64,000 nt of DNA. Source: a virus. Taxonomy: Duplodnaviria; Heunggongvirae; Uroviricota; Caudoviricetes. Positions 8,064 to 64,000 of this stretch are shown one piece after another. Position 1 is the stretch's first letter. The number at the start of each line of letters is the position of its first letter. The DNA is taken from the IMG/VR virus record IMGVR_UViG_3300033489_000001, positions 126,023 to 190,022 of that record, one strand, 5' to 3'. Below the pieces are notes generated by a model. It was not told the origin of the DNA and did not search any database. It saw only the letters and a program-made list of their open reading frames with translations. The translations under genes and the position numbers were made by a program.

Positions 8064-8098
8064 ATCTATTACTACACCGGAGGGAGGAAAAATTCAAG
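8064..8098 (-). promoter_or_regulatory. M1 promoter motif
   Basis: CATATCTATTACTACACCGGAGGGAGGAAAAATTCAAG abutting ATG of 7692-8063. Confidence 0.7.
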
Positions 8099-11522: not shown

Positions 11523-12098
11523 TTAGACAGAGTACTCTACCACCTTGGCCGCATCCGCCTCGCAAATGGTTTTCCACTCGGCTTGAACGGCGTCTCTAAC
11601 CGAACGGATTCGGTCAAAAAAGCGTTCACAACCTTCTCCCCACCTCGTGGCATCTTCATCGGAATTCCCCTTCAGCTTACGAAAAGCTTCCCTCATTGCA
11701 CACTCGGCCGTAGCACACCGCTCAGCCACTTCTAAGTGGAGCTTGGCCGCAGCAATCCCTTCCAAGGTTGAACCACTAAAACTCGCCCATGACGGACGGC
11801 AACGGACAATAAGCCCTTCACGGCGGTCCCAACCCACAAAAACCTCCACGGAAATAGACATATAGAAGGCCACCTCTTGCTTGTAGGTGTATGTCAGGCC
11901 GCCAATTGAAGACACTTCCTTAAGCCGATGATCAAAACCCTGGTCTTCGTACAACTTTAACCACCTCGGATCGGCCTTCGTCGGATAAAATAGGTTGTAA
12001 AAGCCCGGCTCAAAATACCCGAAAGCCGTAACAAAAGCGTTCTCAATGACCGTAGCCACTACCTTGTCACTGAAATCCTTTACCGTCTTGTTAGACAT
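11523..12098 (-). CDS. hypothetical protein
   Basis: 191 aa; promoter motif plus Shine-Dalgarno-like leader. Confidence 0.65.
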   Translation of the reverse strand: MSNKTVKDFSDKVVATVIENAFVTAFGYFEPGFYNLFYPTKADPRWLKLYEDQGFDHRLKEVSSIGGLTYTYKQEVAFYMSISVEVFVGWDRREGLIVRCRPSWASFSGSTLEGIAAAKLHLEVAERCATAECAMREAFRKLKGNSDEDATRWGEGCERFFDRIRSVRDAVQAEWKTICEADAAKVVEYSV

Positions 12099-12150: not shown

Positions 12151-12234
12151 AATTCTTAAAAATCCCCGCTTTTTTCTTTATTTATAAAGATCGCGGAAAT
12201 TATCACTCCCACCCTCTTTTCAAGATAAAAGCCC

Positions 12235-12903: not shown

Positions 12904-13139
12904 TTAATGGATTTCTAATACAACTTCAAAACAGACCCTAACAAAGGTCTACAGCTCTTTGAAAAAGATAAGCGGTTCTAAAGAAAGTCTTCCTTTAGGT
13001 AAAATCTGAAAAGCGAGAGCTGTTTGGAGAAGGTTTTATACCTTCGCCGATAATTGAAACGTCCAGAAATTACCGGCCCTAAAAAATTTCCGCTTTCTCA
13101 AAAACCCCTACACCATTTCAAAAAAGGGGTATCCCCCAC

Positions 13140-14500
13140 GAAAATCAAAGAGCCTATTTATAGCCTCTAGGTTCGTTTTTTCCTTCCGCCCACTAACGAG
13201 CGAAGCGAGTATCAGCCAAAAGCCGAGAGGAGCCTATTTATGTCCCACTCATAAAGAAAGTGGGCTTTCTTTGTAGCTGCACTCTATCCAAAAGAAGATA
13301 AAAATCAAACCGTTTATTTATCAAGATCCGTACTGGACCATATAATCTGCCCCCTAAGCGTCACCTCCAACCCTCCTTCCCGCTCACAAACCCCAAAAGT
13401 ACCCTGCCTCGTCTCTACCCCAACTACATCGTATACCCTGGAAAGTAATACGTTTTGCGTCGTTTCAATCGCTACTAAATGCTTACCGTCACCTATCCGT
13501 ATCTTCATGGCGTTCCCTCTCATATCTAGGTGAAAAGACCTATACCCCAAAATCCCCCTATCCGAAAATTTCAACCATAAAAAAATTCCGCCTCCCCCTG
13601 AAAACCTACCCCTTTCTAAAAAGACCCCCTCCCCTTTATCTCGCTCCCTATGTAACTCGCTAACGCTCAAACCTTTCCTTAAATGACCTTTCAGAATTCC
13701 TCCGTTTAAGACCATGCGTATACTGAATGTGCCAATTACGGATAATAGCAAATTTTAAAAAAATAATGAAGCGGTTTTCCCCAATTTTTACCGCAAATAT
13801 CTTTATAAATAAAGATGGGATTAATCCGAGTAAATGGTATGGATCTTGATCATATAGCAACTGTAGTTGATCAAATCAAGATCAGCATACAACGAGTAAA
13901 TGGCACGGATCTTGATGATATTACAACTGTAGTTGATCAAATCAAGATCGAGGAACAAGGGCGATGGCACGACTATGCCCCTTCGGGGCGGGTCAAGCCG
14001 TGGCCATAGTTGTTCGATGATCTTTATTTATAAAGACTGTAGGTCATTAAAATAAATAAGGCCGATCTTGATGATATTGCAACTGTAGTTGATATGATCA
14101 AGATCGCGGGGGCTTAAAAGAGGCGGTGGTATAAAGGGAAAAGGGCATAGTCAAGCCCCTTAGTATACCTCCGGCCCTTCGGGCCGGGCAAGAACCGGTG
14201 GGCATAGACCATGCCAAGGATTATTGAAACCGATCTTTATTTATAAAGATCAGAAAAAATAAATTGGCATGGATCTTTATTTATAAAGATGGGGGCTATT
14301 ATTTGAAGCCAAGCTTGTGTTGGGCCTCGTGCGGCATAGATACCGGCTCCGGGAGCCGGGTCAGGGCGGCCTCCGGCCGCCAAGGACTAAGGCATCTGGC
14401 TATAGGGCTACTGGTTTCTTGCCCCTACCATCTGGGCGATAGGCTAGGGGCTTCGGGGGCACTATGTTAAGGGCCTCGAGCCGGACGATGTCCTTCTGTA
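13140..14500. repeat. repeat-dense non-coding region A
   Basis: 3 copies of a 42 bp GATCTTGAT...ATCAAGATC palindrome (13842-13883, 13908-13949, 14055-14106), >=4 M2 palindromes, UUCG-loop GC hairpins; no convincing CDS. Confidence 0.7.
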
Positions 14501-16011: not shown

Positions 16012-16065
16012 TTATCTTTCCTAATGATGTTATCTTTCCTAATGATGTTATCTTTCCTAATGATG
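16012..16065. repeat. 3 perfect tandem copies of 18 bp TTATCTTTCCTAATGATG
   Basis: Directly upstream of minus-strand membrane-protein gene 15546-15974. Confidence 0.85.
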
Positions 16066-16094
16066 TTATTTTTTTGAATGCTTCGTGAGTTCAA

Positions 16095-22461: not shown

Positions 22462-22845
22462 ATGGCTTACTGCAAACGCTCTGGATATTGCTGCATCATG
22501 TATGACGTAATTATTGCCATCGAAGAGCCAGATTGTCAGCTCGGACTTTATCACAAACCTACTGGCGTTCGTTGCCCGCACCTGAGCTTCGAGCCGGAAA
22601 CTGGAGACGCCGTCTGTGCTGTTCATGATGAACCTTGGTTCCCACAAACCCCGTGCTACTCTTTTAATAACCCGGACATTGATCCGGACGCCTGCTGTCA
22701 TAAAGGCGGCTGCCGCATTGGACCGTACGTAAGGGAAAAAGAAGGTGGCTGCTTAGCCGAGTTCATGCAAGTCCACTCTAAAGGTCAAGTTGAAAGGTTA
22801 GGTGCTTGGTCGGACTGGCAAGATGGCGTAGAAGAAGATGATTAA
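22462..22845 (+). CDS. Cys-rich hypothetical protein
   Basis: 127 aa, many Cys/His. Confidence 0.5.
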   Translation: MAYCKRSGYCCIMYDVIIAIEEPDCQLGLYHKPTGVRCPHLSFEPETGDAVCAVHDEPWFPQTPCYSFNNPDIDPDACCHKGGCRIGPYVREKEGGCLAEFMQVHSKGQVERLGAWSDWQDGVEEDD

Positions 22846-23040
22846 AACGCTTGGAGTTCAAAGCCCAAATTGTATCGATTGTCTCCTTTCTTTTAGGGAT
22901 TATAAGAAGCGTGCTCGTTGCAATCATCCCGAAGCCAATAGGATGAAAGTACGCATCTATTGGTCGGAGCCCCCGGAGAACTGCCCTCTAAGAAAAGGGC
23001 CTTTAATCATTAAACGGGTCTTCTAATTGGAGAAACACAG

Positions 23041-23232
23041 ATGACGCTCTTTGCAGTAATTTATGATAAACTCTTTCCTACATGTGATTGTTGCGGCAAA
23101 AAAGTGCTCAGATGGACTAAGCTTGTTGAATATACCCCTTGCATAATACGTGCTCATGGTTGTGGGCCTATTGATTATTTCAAAAGCAAGAAGCTTTGTT
23201 TGAGATGTAATAAATATTTTGAGTACTTTTAG
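23041..23232 (+). CDS. Zn-ribbon small protein
   Basis: 63 aa, CDCCGKK...CLRC. Confidence 0.4.
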   Translation: MTLFAVIYDKLFPTCDCCGKKVLRWTKLVEYTPCIIRAHGCGPIDYFKSKKLCLRCNKYFEYF

Positions 23233-23335
23233 ATTGTATTGGAAAGTCCTTCCTCCTAAGCGATGATAGTCCCGGCTCACTTGACCAAAACAGGCTTGTG
23301 GGCTATCCCCAAACAAATCTTAAGGAGTAAACTCA

Positions 23336-23692
23336 ATGCCTGAAGATAAAGACCTCGCCTACCGTCTTCAAAAAATAGTCTCTAATATCCCTGACCTCAA
23401 CTCCAGAGCTAAGATCTTCCTTGAACAGACGCTTATACCAACCCTAGAAGCCTTCATGGACCAAGACCTGGATTTCTTATCTATAGTGGCCCTGAGCCAT
23501 GACCTCGCCATTCAAGATTGGTTCCATACCGATTATGATAATGTCCTCTATGAAGCTTCCGGCCGCCTCCAAGCCATCGCTGGGCTACTATCCGCTTATG
23601 CCCTCCAGAGCGATATGAAGCCCTCTGAAGAAGATTGTGAAGCTTGCAACTGCCCTGATTGCTCTCCTACCGAAAAAGAGGGCGCTAACTAA
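23336..23692 (+). CDS. hypothetical protein (paralog of 27311-27652)
   Basis: 118 aa; shared RLQxIV...VQDWFH...YEASGRLQA...CxCPxCS...KEGAN. Confidence 0.55.
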   Translation: MPEDKDLAYRLQKIVSNIPDLNSRAKIFLEQTLIPTLEAFMDQDLDFLSIVALSHDLAIQDWFHTDYDNVLYEASGRLQAIAGLLSAYALQSDMKPSEEDCEACNCPDCSPTEKEGAN

Positions 23693-23707
23693 AAAAGGAG
23701 AGTACTC

Positions 23708-24112
23708 ATGACCTGTCATTACCCTACCCTATTAGCAGAAGCCGAAAGCAAACTCCTAAAACTTGGATGGGAAAAAACCAATGGCTCCTATTCTTCGGGT
23801 AAAGATAAAAGCATAGGTTACCCCCTAACCCTAGCTCTGGAAGCTGAAAGCAAACTCCTAACTCAAATGGTGCTCGACTTGAAAAACTTCGCCCCACAAG
23901 AACCCGCTTCCATAGAAAAGGTCAACACTACATATCAGCATGAGGATGTCCTTACACGCCTCCATAGCCTAGAACTCAGCATGGCCGCCCATAAACAACA
24001 AATAAGTAAGCTCGATACGTTTAGAGCAACCCTCCTTCAAGGAATAAAAGCGTCCCTCCTCCCGGATGCCCAAGAGTGGCTTGCAGAAGAAAACCCAAAG
24101 CCAAATAAATAA
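23708..24112 (+). CDS. KLGW-family protein (paralog family A)
   Basis: 134 aa; LxKLGW...Y...ALEAE motif shared with 27695, 35847, 36324, 38405, 39621. Confidence 0.55.
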   Translation: MTCHYPTLLAEAESKLLKLGWEKTNGSYSSGKDKSIGYPLTLALEAESKLLTQMVLDLKNFAPQEPASIEKVNTTYQHEDVLTRLHSLELSMAAHKQQISKLDTFRATLLQGIKASLLPDAQEWLAEENPKPNK

Positions 24113-25150
24113 ATAAATAGCCTCATCTTTATTTATAAAGATCCCTACCCTTTATTTATAGCCTCATCTTTATTTATAGCCTCTGGCTATTTTTTAATTT
24201 CAAAAATCCGTACCTCCCTATTTTTATAATTGGATAGCCGCAATAAATGGTACGGATCTTGATTTGATCAACTACAGTTGCTATATCATCAAGATGGGGC
24301 TATTTACTCTCTCTATTCCGATCTTGATTTGATCAACTACAGTTGCTATATCATCAAGATCCCTCGAACGACAATGGCATAACCTTTGCCCGGCCTTCGG
24401 GCCGGGCGTGGTGAGCCTTAGGTCACTCGAATATTCTTCCTATCTTTATTTATAAAGATCCTCATAATTATTTTCATCTTTATTTATAAAGATCCCACGT
24501 ATACACGAGCCATGCTCCGCCCCGTAGGGGCGGCTGGCATTGTCAATGTAAAATTCACATGCCTGCTGAATAAAATTGTCAGGCCGGAAATACCGTTACC
24601 ATTGTAATCTAACAGTGCGAAATCATTTATTGTTTTGTACAAGAACCATGCCAATATATTTTCCATATTTTCCAACCTTTTCAGAAAATAAGTTTACATT
24701 CTGACTGTACAGGATCTTGATAAATAGGGTTTTGAAAAATAGAAGTAATCAAATAAATTGGATCAATCTTTATAAATAAAGACAGGATGAATAATCTGAG
24801 GGTAATGGGGCTTACCCGGCCGGGCCTTCGGGGGGCACGGCAAGGTTATTCCCATTACCTAGACTACCGTAGAGTGGAAGGAGGTGCATAAGCGACAACC
24901 GAGGCATGGCCCTGGGGCTGGGTGATAAGGCTTAGGGCGTGTCATAGAGGCTTGGGGGCGGAATTGACGCTGTTACTAGTACTAGATAGGGTTTAGGGCG
25001 GGATTAGGGGATTGAGGGGGCTCTGATAGGGGTATGGAAGGCTTTAGGCAACCTTCTTGGAACAAAGGGGGGGGTTGATTAAATAAAAGGTCAAAGGCAA
25101 ACTAGCTTGGTGTTATTTAGAGATTGGAAAGAGCAAGGTTGAGAAAGGGA
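24113..25150. repeat. repeat-dense non-coding region B, inverted relative to region A, followed by a G-rich tract
   Basis: 42 bp palindromes in opposite orientation at 24255-24295 and 24311-24352, >=4 M2 palindromes, UUCG hairpins, TTAGGG-like G-runs at 24850-25090. Confidence 0.7.
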
Positions 25151-25643: not shown

Positions 25644-25678
25644 CATCTTTATTTATAAAGATAATTACGGGATTTTTT
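25644..25678 (+). promoter_or_regulatory. M2 palindromic motif ATCTTTATTTATAAAGAT + AATTACGGGATTTTT
   Basis: Second conserved upstream element class. Confidence 0.45.
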
Positions 25679-25734
25679 GAAATAAGGGAAGCTGAACCTT
25701 GATAGGCCAGGGTTCCGGTGTAATACTAGCTTGT

Positions 25735-25768
25735 GATCTTTATTTATAAAGATAATTACGGGATTTTT
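25735..25768 (+). promoter_or_regulatory. M2 motif
   Basis: Repeat of the 25644 element, ~70 nt upstream of ATG 25810. Confidence 0.45.
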
Positions 25769-25809
25769 GGGTTAGGCAGAGGTGCAGAATCTTTTCTTTT
25801 TTAGGAATT

Positions 25810-26196
25810 ATGAATACAAAGCGTCCTGATTGTTTAGCTTGTGGGGTATGTTGTTGGGCTATGGAAGAGGCCAAGCTACTGGATTCTTGGGGTCGGAAGC
25901 ACATTGTAGAGGTTCCCTGGAATGATCCTCACGCTTGGGTAGGGACTTACGGAGCCATTGAGACCAAGTGGCGAACGATGAAGGCTGGTCCTTTGAAAGG
26001 GCGGGAGATTCTTATTTGTGAAGCTTTACGAGGCTCGATGCTTCATCGAGTTAAATGCAGTATTTATGAAAAGAGGCCTTCGGTTTGTAAGGTGACTTTT
26101 CGGCCTGGGGACTTAGCATGTTTGAAGTTGAGGAGGAGGCTTGTAAGTGAAACATACAAGGTGTCTAGACAAGAAGACGCCACAAGAGGTCCTTGA
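25810..26196 (+). CDS. YkgJ-family CxxCxxCC zinc/iron-chelating domain protein
   Basis: 128 aa; CLACGVCC ... CSIYEKRPSVC pattern. Confidence 0.6.
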   Translation: MNTKRPDCLACGVCCWAMEEAKLLDSWGRKHIVEVPWNDPHAWVGTYGAIETKWRTMKAGPLKGREILICEALRGSMLHRVKCSIYEKRPSVCKVTFRPGDLACLKLRRRLVSETYKVSRQEDATRGP

Positions 26197-26334
26197 GGTT
26201 TTAGAGCCTTTAGAAAGCCTCCAGTTCCTATCTTAGATGAACAGAGCTAATCTTGGCTTTTCCGCCTATAAAGGCAAAGGGGAGCCATTTAGAGCAAGTG
26301 CTGGGCATTACGAAAGCGATTAGAAAGGAAAGAT

Positions 26335-26604
26335 ATGATTCCGAAACATCTTCTTCCGCGTACCGTGTTACTAGAAGTTGTCAACCACGAGGAGTACGTT
26401 GAATACGAATCTGAACTTGACCCTGACGGCAAACAAACTTTGAAGCGTAGCCTTGATGGCAAGCCCATTAAAATTGAAGGTTCCGAAACCGCTTTCCTTC
26501 ATTTGAAAGCCCTTGATGGTAAAATCATTCGAGCGCAGATCTCGCATGAAAATCTTGACAAAATCTTAGCTCTCAGATTTCCTGAAGACTTTGACAAGAA
26601 ATAA
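26335..26604 (+). CDS. hypothetical protein
   Basis: 89 aa. Confidence 0.45.
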   Translation: MIPKHLLPRTVLLEVVNHEEYVEYESELDPDGKQTLKRSLDGKPIKIEGSETAFLHLKALDGKIIRAQISHENLDKILALRFPEDFDKK

Positions 26605-26607
26605 AGG

Positions 26608-26636
26608 CTATTTATAAAGATAATTGCGGGCTTTTT
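26608..26636 (+). promoter_or_regulatory. M2 motif (half palindrome) + GGTGTAGAGCTATT
   Basis: Upstream of ATG 26668. Confidence 0.45.
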
Positions 26637-26667
26637 CGGTGTAGAGCTATTATGGAAGCTCCAAATT

Positions 26668-26937
26668 ATGACGAAAGACAAGTTTGAGACCTTAATGCGT
26701 GAGATCACTATAGCGAAGGCGAAGCTTGAAGCTGCTAATATGGCCGTAGATCGAATATGTCTTTCCGAGAAATACCTAGATGCCGTCCGTGGCCATCTAG
26801 GTCATTTTAAGAGAATTAATGGCAAACGGTCTTTACTTGGGTATCCGGTTTACAGGTCCTTGGGTTCTTACGTTAGGTCTTCGGCTAAATTTGGCAAGAA
26901 GGCCATGTATATAGAGTTTTCAGGGCTAGCGGATTAA
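26668..26937 (+). CDS. hypothetical protein (MTKDKFETLM paralog 1)
   Basis: 89 aa; tandem paralog of 26996-27265; palindromic promoter motif upstream. Confidence 0.55.
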   Translation: MTKDKFETLMREITIAKAKLEAANMAVDRICLSEKYLDAVRGHLGHFKRINGKRSLLGYPVYRSLGSYVRSSAKFGKKAMYIEFSGLAD

Positions 26938-26943
26938 TTCATG

Positions 26944-26995
26944 CATCTTTATAAATAAAGATATTTAGCGGGTTTTTGAGGTGTAGAGCTATTGC
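26944..26995 (+). promoter_or_regulatory. M2 motif + GGTGTAGAGCTATTGC -10-like box
   Basis: CATCTTTATAAATAAAGATATTTAGCGGGTTTTTGAGGTGTAGAGCTATTGC then ATG. Confidence 0.5.
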
Positions 26996-27265
26996 ATGAC
27001 AAAAGACAAATTTGAGACTTTGATGTCCGAGATAGCTAAGGCGAAGAGCAAGCTTGAAGCTGCTGATGTTCCGGTGGATCGTATATACATCACCAAGGAG
27101 TACCTAGATGCCATTCGTGGTTATGTAGGGCATTTAGAGAGGCTTGAGGGTAAGCCATCTTTATTTGGGCATCCGGTTTTTAGGGGGCCGGAATCGTTAG
27201 TTACCTCTTCGGCTAAGTTTGGCCTCCGGTGTGTGAAGATAGAGTTTTCGAGGCTAGAGGATTAA
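26996..27265 (+). CDS. hypothetical protein (MTKDKFETLM paralog 2)
   Basis: 89 aa; tandem paralog. Confidence 0.55.
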   Translation: MTKDKFETLMSEIAKAKSKLEAADVPVDRIYITKEYLDAIRGYVGHLERLEGKPSLFGHPVFRGPESLVTSSAKFGLRCVKIEFSRLED

Positions 27266-27272
27266 TTCCAGC

Positions 27273-27310
27273 CATCTTTATAAATAAAGATATTTAGCGG
27301 ATTTTTCAAG
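27273..27310 (+). promoter_or_regulatory. M2 motif
   Basis: Same palindrome before ATG 27311. Confidence 0.45.
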
Positions 27311-27652
27311 ATGACTAAAGACGAAGAACTAACCGTACGCCTCCAACAAATAGTCAAACGTATTCCTGAGCTTCCCCCTGGAGCCCAAGCCTTCATTGAA
27401 AGGAACATTTTACCGGCCTTGGAAGCCATCTTAAACGATGACCTAGCTTTCCTTGCTATCGTAGCTTTGGGTGAAAACACTACAGTCCAAGATTGGTTCC
27501 ACCTTGATATTGAGGGGGTCTTATATGAAGCCTCTGGCCGCCTCCAAGCTCTCTCTAATGCCCTTACCACCTGCGCTATGCATGTAGCCTTGAAAGACGA
27601 ACAGGAGCCTTGTGACTGCCCTGAATGCTCTAAAAAAGAGGGCGCTAACTAG
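27311..27652 (+). CDS. hypothetical protein (paralog of 23336-23692)
   Basis: 113 aa. Confidence 0.55.
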   Translation: MTKDEELTVRLQQIVKRIPELPPGAQAFIERNILPALEAILNDDLAFLAIVALGENTTVQDWFHLDIEGVLYEASGRLQALSNALTTCAMHVALKDEQEPCDCPECSKKEGAN

Positions 27653-27694
27653 ATCCCCTTATGGACAAAGGAGTTTTATGCCAGAGGATGATTT

Positions 27695-28081
27695 ATGATT
27701 AATCTCTTTAGGAAGGTTTTGTCTCTTTTCAAGCTTCGCCGGGTTACGATTGAAGAGTCTTTGAGCAATCCGGTTAGGAAGCCTCTTGAGGAAGGCTTCA
27801 CTGATAAAGCTCCTAACTGGCTCATAGCCCTAGAAGCCCATAACTTCCTAGTCCGGCAAGGTTGGATAAAGGACCAAGACTACTATCTTCCGCATAAAGA
27901 CGCCAAAATCCGATACCCTTTAATCAAGGCTCTGGAAACCGAAAGCGAACGCCTAACCGACTTAATCACCACGCTCAAAGAAGCCCCTGCATCCTTCGAT
28001 CCTAAGGACCCTCTTTCTTTAGAAGGGATTTTGGATCAAATAAACAAGTCGGTTGCGTTTCAATTACGGAAGAGATCTTAG
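27695..28081 (+). CDS. KLGW-family protein (divergent)
   Basis: 128 aa; YPLIKALETESERL resembles YPLTLALEAESKLL of 23708. Confidence 0.5.
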   Translation: MINLFRKVLSLFKLRRVTIEESLSNPVRKPLEEGFTDKAPNWLIALEAHNFLVRQGWIKDQDYYLPHKDAKIRYPLIKALETESERLTDLITTLKEAPASFDPKDPLSLEGILDQINKSVAFQLRKRS

Positions 28082-53620: not shown

Positions 53621-54244
53621 ATGTCAAACAATACCTCTATAACGGGGGAAATGTCTATTTTTGATTTTAGTTCGAATTTATCCATAAAGCCATCCTGTGT
53701 TTTGCAGGACAATTGTTGTCCAGAAAGAGTCTTTCACGATAAAAAAGTCAAAGATTTGCTAGACTGGACACCCACAAGCCTAGCCAAATTGAAAAATATG
53801 GGTAGAAAAAGTGTAAGAGAAATTCAAGAGGAATTGGCTAAGCATGGTTTGAAATTGAAAGAGGATCTTATTGAAGTAGTGGAACCCCCTCCTAAACAGT
53901 CAGCACAACTGCCCCCTATGCTCCAAAATGAAATGCTCTACGCCCTGACTTCGGCTGTTTTGAATGCTTTGGCGCTATCTGGCGAACCACAAATCTACAG
54001 CGACGTAGCCCCTATAATTGGCTACTACCATCGCGATCGAAACTTTCATATTCAGCTAGGGCGTTCTTTACGGGAAGATCATGCTAACGGCCGCCCTTTA
54101 CGGGCTTCTTTGGTTATAAACAAAGCCTTAGGTATGCCAGGTGATGCTTATTTTAAGGTGTGCCGGGAACTTGGCTATGTTATTCCGTCCGGAGATGAAG
54201 CTACATTTTGGGCCGAACAACTCAAGCGTCTTGAGAAAATTTGA
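53621..54244 (+). CDS. protein with RNA polymerase alpha-subunit C-terminal-domain-like HhH module
   Basis: 207 aa; VKDLLDWTPTSLAKLKNMGRKSVREIQEELAKHGLKL aligns with rpoA alpha-CTD (L..S.R..N.L...NLGKKSLTEIK..L...GL.L). Confidence 0.5.
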   Translation: MSNNTSITGEMSIFDFSSNLSIKPSCVLQDNCCPERVFHDKKVKDLLDWTPTSLAKLKNMGRKSVREIQEELAKHGLKLKEDLIEVVEPPPKQSAQLPPMLQNEMLYALTSAVLNALALSGEPQIYSDVAPIIGYYHRDRNFHIQLGRSLREDHANGRPLRASLVINKALGMPGDAYFKVCRELGYVIPSGDEATFWAEQLKRLEKI

Positions 54245-60443: not shown

Positions 60444-60898
60444 GGGTTTTACATAGCAAAAGCTTACACGTCCCACACAATAAGGAGGTGGGTTTACTTT
60501 GATAGCATTGCAGAATCCAAGTGGTTAGCCTCTGTTCTGGAGAAAGTGTAAATTTTCCAATCACTGACTGAAAATTTCTTTTGAACGAAAGATAGCACAT
60601 GAAATACAAAATATGGATCGAAGGTTATAGGGCCACCGGAGGTCCCGCTCATTAAGTAGGCGGGTTTACTTTGAGTTCTTTATCTTATCGCTACTGTAGT
60701 TGATCAAATCAAGATGGGAATGGAGTCTAAGAATCATGACTTTTAATCATAGCCTGATCCTAGAGCAACCGTCTATGCTGTGCCTATCCCCCCTAGGCGC
60801 TCGGATGTGTGTAGCTCGATTGGGCTATGATTCAAGATCATGAGCCAATTTTCCAATCATTGATGGGAGACTTAGGACTATAACTGAGCAGAAAGCCA

Positions 60899-63004: not shown

Positions 63005-64000
63005 ATTTCAATTACAGAGGGAAGGATTACCTCCCCTCCTTATTAAGCATAATAGAATGTCGAGAGTCATTTCAATTTCAGGGGGAGAATTACTCTCCCT
63101 CCTTTTGCTCCCCTCCTTCTGAGTGCTTTGAGTAGTGATGGTTTCAATTACAGAGGAAGAATTACTCTTCCTCCTTATGTGCGTCTCTTACAACAGACAC
63201 GTATGGCGTTTCAATTACAGAGGAAGAGTAATTCTTCCTCCTCCTTCGGCTACTGAGGACAATTGTCAGTTGCCAATTAGTTTCAATTTCAGAGGGATAT
63301 TTACTATCCCTCCTTGGGTGAGCTATCCATGCCGGTGTTCAATTACGTTGCAATTACAGAGGAAGAATTACTCTTCCTCCTTACAGATAACAAGCTTCGT
63401 CCACATTGCCTTGGTTGTTTCAATTCCAGAGAGAGTAAATATCCCTCTCCTTTAAGTATATTTTAACTATCGAAGGGTCGCAAGATCTGGGATTTCAATT
63501 CCGGAGGGAGAATTACTCTCCCTCCTTGCACTCGAGCGGATGCCGTGAGGGTTCTTTTGTTTCAATTTTAGAGAGATATTTACTATCCCTTCTTCTATTG
63601 CAAACGATATTACTTGTTACGGCGATCTCCGGTTTCAATTACAGAGGAAGAGGTATCCCTTCCTCCTTTACTCTATTCTAAAAGTTGAGCCAATGCATTA
63701 TTTCAATTTCAGAAGGAGAATTACTCTCCTTCCTTGCTCGTCAAAATGGATATGCGCTCTAAATCGATACTTGTTTCAATTACAGAGGAAGAGAAACCCT
63801 CCCTCCCTCCCTCCCTCCCTCCCTCTGGTAGATAAATCCTATAGTCTTTCCGGAATATTTTCTTTTCAATTACAGAGGAAGAGGTACCTCTTCCTCTCTC
63901 TTGGGTAATGTAAGAGCGTCCTCGATTGGTGTTTCAATTCCAGAGGGAGAATTACTCTCCCTCCTTAAGTTAGGAGTTGAGCGAGCTAGGCGGGAAGGGT
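63005..64000 (+). CRISPR. CRISPR-like array: >=14 degenerate ~36 bp hairpin repeats with 29-39 bp unique spacers, truncated by window end
   Basis: Consensus (G)TTTCAATTNCAGAGGAAGAATTACTCTTCCTCCTT; period 65-75 bp; stems covary; no cas genes in window. Confidence 0.45.
63797..63821. repeat. (CCCT)6 microsatellite inside one array repeat
   Basis: ccctccctccctccctccctccctc. Confidence 0.9.

Follow-up and report, generated by a model that had tools for sequence, protein, structure and literature searches.

A locally confined palindromic element, a candidate operator, in the genome of a huge phage

The 64,000-nt stretch analyzed here, referred to as the window, comes from a huge, uncharacterised phage of ~411 kb (IMG/VR record IMGVR_UViG_3300033489_000001). 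It carries repeated copies of an 18-bp AT-rich palindrome, some placed just upstream of small genes and others lying in two non-coding regions. We asked what this element does. The window corresponds to ~159,287-223,286 of the 411,476-bp metagenomic contig ENA ERZ27256988 k141_5351839. We also examined 9.7 kb of flanking contig on the left and 9.0 kb on the right, for a total of ~83 kb. The lineage is known from metagenomes alone. The same phage sequence is also represented by a 411,618-bp JGI contig and by fragmented Logan contigs. Fragments from other assemblies were 100% identical to this phage, so there was no population variation to exploit.

The palindrome reads ATCTTTAT-WW-ATAAAGAT. We found 13 sites in the window at two or fewer mismatches, compared with 0.00 expected from 100 shuffles of the window (site starts 12174, 13799, 14020, 14233, 14273, 24125, 24442, 24476, 24766, 25645, 25736, 26945 and 27274). 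This bears out the original prediction, which was made from the letters of the window, that a palindrome recurs here with a series of associated elements. A 14th copy at 26604 retains the palindrome's right 13 nt alone. Every copy is in non-coding DNA between 12,174 and 27,291 (~15 kb), and the palindrome is absent from the remaining 49 kb of the window and from both flanks. The core TCTTTAT is unchanged in 26 of 26 half-sites. The outermost base deviates three times, and none of these changes is compensated in the opposite arm. The motif is a real, strongly non-random and locally confined cis-element.

The element occurs in two forms. Seven bare copies lie in the non-coding regions A and B, and seven composite copies carry a one-sided tail of 15 nt, AWTTA(G)CGG(G)-N-TTTTT. 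The tail sequence AWTTRSNGGNTTTT has five matches in the window against 0.24 expected, all five joined to a palindrome, and looser versions are found on the minus strand at 12174 and 13799. The tail is oriented with transcription in 7/7 composite copies. Genes diverge at ~17.3 kb, so the tails point outward from a central 10-kb island on both sides. The central dinucleotide of the palindrome is TT or AA, never AT or TA, and is unrelated to tail orientation. A GGTGYAR box is found 16-54 nt downstream, on the tail side, in five of the seven composites (background 0.033 per 90 nt) and beside none of the seven bare copies on either side. The composite copies and the promoter that two of them surround are as follows.

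25645-25677, plus strand: composite copy with the palindrome at 25645-25662 and tail AATTACGGGATTTTT, 54 nt upstream of the GGTG box of the promoter at 25699-25729.
25699-25729, plus strand: main-type promoter (TTGATA, 12 nt, GGTGTAATACTAG) with two identical composites around it, centres 91 bp apart.
25736-25768, plus strand: composite copy, 33/33 identical to 25645-25677, starting ~4 nt past the predicted start of the promoter at 25699-25729.
26604-26651, plus strand: half copy with tail and box (palindrome part 26609-26621, tail 26622-26636, GGTGTAGAGCTATT at 26638-26651).
26945-26993, plus strand: composite at 26945-26977 with the box GGTGTAGAGCTATT at 26980-26993.
27274-27306, plus strand: composite copy, 8 nt past the stop of gene 26996-27265 and 4 nt ahead of the ATG of gene 27311.
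12158-12191, minus strand: composite copy with the palindrome at 12174-12191 and tail AAAAGCGGGGATTTTT; a complete main-family promoter lies downstream, its GGTG box 44 nt away.
13783-13816, minus strand: composite copy on the outer edge of region A; its tail, ATTTGCGGTAAAAATT, is degenerate.

The original prediction placed such elements ahead of five plus-strand genes. Five composite elements do occupy 25645-27306, but the genes that they directly serve are four (25810, 26668, 26996 and 27311): gene 25810 has two elements upstream, gene 26335 has none, and one of the five elements is the truncated copy at 26604. The GGTGTAGAGCTATT box, said to follow in several cases, follows the 26604 and 26945 copies only, and these two cases derive from a tandem gene duplication. 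At least eight more copies had been described as lying in regions A and B with no gene behind them. We count nine further copies outside 25644-27310, but those at 12174 and 13799 are minus-strand composites and are not gene-less; the promoter behind 12174 belongs to gene 11523-12098.

The 26604 element begins on the last stop-codon base of gene 26335-26604. The ATG of gene 26996 lies 2 nt beyond the GGTGTAGAGCTATT box at 26980-26993, a distance within 1 nt of that in the leaderless main family. A GGTGCAGAAT box is found at 25781, 27 nt downstream of the composite at 25736-25768, and gene 25810 is next. The 27274 copy has no -10-like box or core, and its ATG comes 19 nt after the palindrome. 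Behind the GGTGTAGAGCTATT box at 26638, precisely where a leaderless gene would start, there is an 11-codon mini open reading frame (ORF) at 26,652-26,687. This mini-ORF overlaps the start of gene 26668 out of frame, and the paralogue 26996 lacks this 16-nt insertion.

We compared the composites with the main promoter family of this phage, AAAAAC-TTGAAT-N13-GGTGTAGTAATAG. The ATG very often stands 2 nt behind the box of this family, so the mRNAs are probably leaderless. Examples of the type (TTGAAT-N13-GGTGTAGTA(A/G)TAG) are found at 8078, 15522, 17547, 21827 and 57979, and at L129 8916 and L132 2519. The same promoter type and arrangement are present in related ~400-kb contigs of 48-56% G+C and, judged by this comparison, the main promoter type is a clade-wide signal. 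We placed the start points of the composites by analogy with the leaderless main family, 15 nt after the first G of GGTG. The GGTGTAGAGCTATT box starts 16 nt (26604) and 17 nt (26945) after the end of the palindrome and has GGTGTAG in common with the main box. At both copies, the palindrome junction (GATAAT or GATATT) occupies the exact place of the main-family TTGAAT. These are the only two copies in which the family-type -35 hexamer is missing yet the downstream core is recognisable. Their palindromes would be centred at ~-40.5 (26604) and ~-41.5 (26945). The other five composites are off this geometry; on the same analogy, the palindrome is also predicted at ~-68.5 (12174), at -78.5 and over about +5 to +22. 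The identical sites at 25645 and 25736 lie 91 bp apart on both sides of a complete main-type promoter. By geometry only, the palindrome is placed as a repressor operator would be, just past the predicted start at 25736 and over the -35 position at 26604 and 26945.

A distinct promoter class, as originally proposed, describes only a part of the series. It fits 26604 and 26945, where the palindrome takes the -35 position of a GGTGTAG core, and weakly 25736. Outside 26604 and 26945 the arrangement differs: 12174 and 25645 lie upstream of complete main-type promoters, 25736 sits just past a predicted start, and 27274 is without a core.

We favor the reading that the palindrome is the recognition site of a phage-encoded, probably dimeric DNA-binding protein that controls outward promoters, and we give this reading a probability of roughly 45%. 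To the left and right of the 10-kb early-gene island, such a protein would govern the start of transcription in the first units that face outward. The composite would be its site fused to the oriented 15-nt tail and set beside GGTGTAG-type cores in three arrangements. At 26604 and 26945, the site would replace the -35/UP half of the promoter, and the bound protein could either substitute for -35 recognition (activation) or occlude the promoter (repression). At 25645 and 25736, two sites would act around one complete promoter, as is typical where looping or a roadblock brings about repression. The 12174 site would act on a complete promoter from an upstream position. The same protein would load onto the bare copies of regions A and B, where its role could be in an origin, in partition or as a reservoir. 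The cores that lack a -35 speak for activation, whereas the complete promoter between two sites speaks for repression; by analogy with lambda cI, a dual role is possible.

Several known regulatory systems resemble parts of this arrangement. Activator sites that replace the -35 element include those of CRP and FNR at class II promoters (-41.5), of phage Mu Mor and C (near -43.5) and of lambda cI at PRM. The 26604 and 26945 copies are similar in having a dyad over the -35 position, a retained downstream core and no family -35 hexamer, with starts placed by analogy. They differ in that the geometry is limited to two duplicate sites, and the palindrome is found in other positions too, including in gene-less arrays. 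Repressor operators with auxiliary sites include lac O1 and O3, which are 92 bp apart, and lambda-type operator clusters. The identical palindromes 91 bp apart around a complete promoter recall these systems, as do palindrome pairs within regions A and B that are closely spaced, at 34 and 40 bp. The one-sided tail has no counterpart on the classical operators. The stoperators of Cluster A mycobacteriophages are asymmetric 13-bp sites that are bound by a monomer and dispersed genome-wide (PMC9283540, PMC6550527). Both systems have many copies of one site in short intergenic gaps, oriented with transcription. Unlike stoperators, the element described here is a palindrome, is confined to 12.17-27.29 kb of the 83 kb examined, and is oriented by its tail only.

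An inverted repeat can act as a DNA site or as a structure in the transcript, and we evaluated the second possibility by folding. The palindrome hairpin has 7 pairs, all but one of them A-U, and a predicted energy of -3.5 kcal/mol. Fold z-scores are ~0 in 5/7 contexts, there is no conserved lower stem, and the T5 run starts 10-11 nt from the stem. The 12174 copy alone is terminator-like, with an extended stem followed by U5 (-14.2 kcal/mol, z -2.67). The 26604 half copy is unable to fold, yet it retains the tail and the box. The lack of covariation between the arms and the non-folding half copy that keeps its tail and core favor sequence readout by a symmetric protein. The dimeric-protein operator suggested in the original prediction is consistent with the sequence, given the invariant half-site, the two-fold symmetry, the orientation-neutral WW centre, the absence of covariation and the negligible hairpin.

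These folds also bear on a different explanation, in which the element is a stem-loop/promoter cassette that acts in the transcript, similar to the PeSL of T4-type phages. It would attenuate or end read-through or mark a processing or stability site, and it could also provide recombination points for shuffling small ORFans. Copies at 24125, 26604, 26945 and 27274 begin 0-12 nt past stop codons, the oriented tail ends in T5, the 12174 copy folds as described above, and each of the two tandem paralogues (26668 and 26996) has an element at its flank. The stem-loop lies upstream of, overlapping or downstream of the -35/-10 region, as in PeSL subclasses (PMC2839356). Canonical intrinsic terminators are under-represented in this genome. 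The general plan is also shared: a repeated intergenic composite starting from an upstream stop codon, a stem-loop with an early-type promoter in variable relative position (5/7 composites have a GGTGYAR core), small ORFans and duplication. However, PeSL of T4-type phages have GC-rich, sequence-variable stems and are proven terminators (PMC2839356, PMC4122927). The stem described here is invariant, very weak and AT-rich, is also present without a promoter, and is not the G/C-rich, variable terminator seen in PeSL. Seven copies in regions A and B have neither tail nor flanking genes, and the weak hairpin, the distant T-run, the invariant arm and the half copy all fit this explanation poorly. 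We consider it unlikely.

Several other candidate identities were tried and rejected. A canonical intrinsic terminator was rejected: the element lacks a stable G+C-rich hairpin, its U-tract does not directly follow the stem, and a terminator scan did not pick it up. Nut-like boxA/boxB sites were rejected for the wrong order and too many copies, and integron attC sites for the absence of core-site similarity. Rfam, at gathering and permissive thresholds, and a tRNA search gave no match.

Could the palindrome itself be a promoter? It would then be a -35-less promoter for a phage sigma factor or RNA polymerase, resembling the TATA-like T4 late sequence TATAAATA, with a start in the tail ~6 nt downstream at a conserved purine. 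Every copy has TATAAAGA on both strands, and TATAAATA is on the plus strand in 4 copies; among the five plus-strand composites, only 2 have this exact octamer on the sense strand. A good -10-like hexamer (GATAAT or GATATT) stands at the palindrome-tail junction in 6/7 composites and in none of the bare copies, and 7/7 composites have a purine at position 23, counted from the start of the palindrome. However, a symmetric element gives no direction, and for the bare copies in A and B there is no gene to be transcribed. The 83 kb examined of ~411 kb yielded no extra sigma factor (including a gp55-like one) or RNA polymerase subunit. Transcripts from the 27274 copy would have a 17-nt leader without a ribosome-binding site, and the GGTGTAG core behind two copies would be redundant. 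This makes an autonomous promoter very unlikely. Two more conventional promoter types were also rejected. A sigma-70 promoter using GATAAT as its -10 has no -35 at 16-18 nt in any copy, and a MerR-type spacer operator has no -35 at 19-20 nt.

The ORF at 53,621-54,244 contains a bacterial RNA-polymerase alpha C-terminal domain (Pfam E = 4.6e-7). The presence of this domain in a phage protein indicates a bacterial host. The protein could be a modulator of UP-type AT-rich element recognition.

The bare copies lie in two regions that share a common design, and their features are listed here.

14020-14037, 14233-14250 and 14273-14290, unstranded: bare copies in region A, most of them flanked by GATC.
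24125-24142, 24442-24459, 24476-24493 and 24766-24783, unstranded: bare copies in region B, where a half copy is also present (24166-24178).
13842-14106, unstranded: 41-bp interrupted palindromes, GATCTTGAT-N23-ATCAAGATC, three in region A, with region B partners at 24255-24295 and 24320-24361.

Regions A (13,790-14,400) and B (24,110-24,900) are non-coding and repeat-rich, and they flank the 10-kb island of small divergent genes. Both contain palindromes, 41-bp elements and long GC-rich hairpins in a common left-to-right order. The arms of the 41-bp elements (ATCTTKAT) are one base off the palindrome half-site, and the elements are spaced 65-66 bp apart. A and B share a double unit of 109 bp at 89% identity, one copy being inverted relative to the other. 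The enrichment of GATC is 7-fold in A and 3.7-fold in B. The long GC-rich hairpins have UUCG/UNCG loops and z-scores of -3.9 to -4.4, with no Rfam match. The idea that copies in A and B serve as decoy or titration sites finds no support here. They are part of ordered arrays with 41-bp elements, GATC clusters and long GC hairpins, and therefore look like primary functional sites. Regions A and B could be an origin, a centromere or genes for non-coding RNAs.

This organization raises the alternative that the palindrome belongs primarily to a replication-origin or partition element, as an initiator or centromere-binding site or as an AT-rich unwinding element. Its proper place would then be in regions A and B, with the copies near genes in a subsidiary role, for example in autoregulation or in coupling early transcription to replication. 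Half of the copies (7/14) are in A and B together with 41-bp elements that share ATCTTKAT and a 65-66-bp periodicity, the GATC enrichment has the same location, and the stable hairpins adjoin the copies. Over the 83-kb span, cumulative GC skew reaches its minimum at ~17.3 kb, between A and B, and the composites are mirror-symmetric about that centre. Origin repeats such as unwinding 13-mers and iterons would be expected as AT-rich clusters with GATC at a strand-bias switch, beside an initiator gene; clustering, GATC enrichment and a skew minimum are present here. The GATC-flanked copies (GATCTTTATTTAT) may also resemble the E. coli oriC 13-mer, GATCTnTTnTTTT. However, the skew switch coincides with the switch in gene orientation and may stem from transcription. 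The 83 kb examined showed no initiator, helicase-loader or ParA/ParB gene. An origin or partition element also leaves the oriented tail and the association with promoter cores unexplained. We consider this alternative unlikely as well.

Additional repeats surround these regions. A second small repeat, (C)CTATTTATAGCCTC, is found at 13,150-13,240 and 24,145-24,195 and has TTTATTTATA in common with the palindrome's left part; the stretch of it at 24176-24195 makes a short hairpin with T6 behind. G-rich tracts on the outward-transcribed strand lie just outside B and A as mirror images (24,900-25,100, G-rich on the plus strand; 13,000-13,650, C-rich on the plus strand) and hold repeats such as GGCTTAGGGCG and GGTTTAGGGCGGGATTAGGGG. 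An iteron-like 18-bp tandem repeat, TTATCTTTCCTAATGATG, is intergenic at 16,012-16,073 (3.4 copies, 97% identity), ~1.2 kb from the GC-skew minimum and orientation switch. Far from A and B, an isolated partial 41-bp element (...CTGTAGTTGATCAAATCAAGAT) is present at 60,682-60,715 in a 450-nt intergenic region.

We also considered whether the copies are maintained by selection. The paralogous genes 26668 and 26996 differ at 9/26 fourfold-degenerate sites (35%). The 33-nt elements that follow them (26945-26977 and 27274-27306) differ at 1/33 positions. The elements are thus better conserved than neutral sites, a sign of selection or, at the least, of active homogenisation. The 25645 and 25736 elements are 33/33 identical and have unrelated flanks. 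These comparisons address the possibility that the element is a functionless repeat, recently spread by local duplication and gene conversion. In its favor, 25645 and 25736 are clear duplicates, the copies at 26604, 26945 and 27274 flank a tandem gene duplication, and all copies are local. However, the paralogue-flanking copies remain 97% identical while their genes have diverged, the element occupies at least three unrelated sequence contexts in non-coding DNA only, and its tail is tied to transcription in every composite. A functionless repeat is highly improbable. Region B also has sets of paralogous genes to its left and right (22,462-24,112 and 25,810-28,081), pairing 23336 with 27311, 23708 with 27695 and probably 22462 with 25810. 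The left set has no palindrome between its genes.

We searched for the protein that would bind the palindrome and for relatives that carry it. Profile searches of 100 ORFs against Pfam, PHROGs and NCBIfam detected no DNA-binding family that could supply an activator, and they recognised no helix-turn-helix, ribbon-helix-helix or ParB-type match near the sites and no repressor gene there, though orphan proteins could still be binders. Structure models of the candidate ORFs 26996 and 25161 were uninformative (pLDDT 64 and 40) and had no fold match. Scans of viral contigs with the composite in two forms, the double palindrome and the main promoter found no relative with the motif, and motif scans of metagenome contigs gave no match. 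A scan of genome contigs with the bare palindrome gave only single chance matches in unrelated AT-rich genomes. Homologue searches with genes 27311 and 12235 returned only self-matches. Relatives of the radical-SAM protein encoded in the window are ~400-kb contigs, and the 20-kb loci retrieved from them were non-syntenic and lacked the palindrome. A literature search found no paper with the motif sequence. Because neither a binder nor a motif-bearing relative was found, the mechanism is one that we infer.

The missing binder and the missing relatives count against the protein-operator reading, and four further points do so as well. The tail, and the T-run especially, is given no role in the model. 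The start sites rest on the analogy to the main family. The geometry with centres at about -41 comes from two tandem-duplicate copies, which are effectively one event. Finally, the near-identity of copies could come in part from recent duplication or gene conversion instead of selection.

Other features of the window support its assignment to a huge phage. Several window ORFs match phage-only PHROG families, the radical-SAM protein has relatives in jumbo phages, and most genes are orphans in profile searches. An array of clustered regularly interspaced short palindromic repeats (CRISPR) begins at ~63.2 kb, fills the window from ~63,200 to 64,000 and runs ~4.4 kb past it (L125 5346-9750). It contains at least 60 repeats of ~36-37 nt with a period of ~72 nt that end in ...CTGTAATTGAAAC, and the stems of the repeats show compensatory variation. 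Next to the array are type I-C-like cas genes (Csd1/Cas8c, Cas7 and a Cas3-like helicase; L125 1-4931).

A more ambitious version of the protein-operator reading would join the two settings of the palindrome. One orphan protein would read pairs of the arm ATCTTKAT set either 2 bp apart, as in the palindrome, or 23 bp apart, as in the 41-bp element. This protein would organize A and B, which enclose the early island, into a two-part structure resembling an origin or centromere. It would also switch the neighbouring leaderless promoters by standing in for -35 recognition. We regard this scenario as a long shot. If true, it would be a replication-coupled transcription switch in a CRISPR-bearing phage, with no characterised jumbo-phage counterpart.

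As a kind of feature, the phage operator or regulatory cassette is known, fairly ordinary and not conceptually new. An operator-like site of this type is useful for annotation. Gene regulation in huge phages is almost unmapped, and here a localised second cis-element marks the borders of the early island and two origin-like regions. Its binder, if found, would provide an entry to the early-to-later switch, and possibly to the replication origin, of this metagenome-only lineage.

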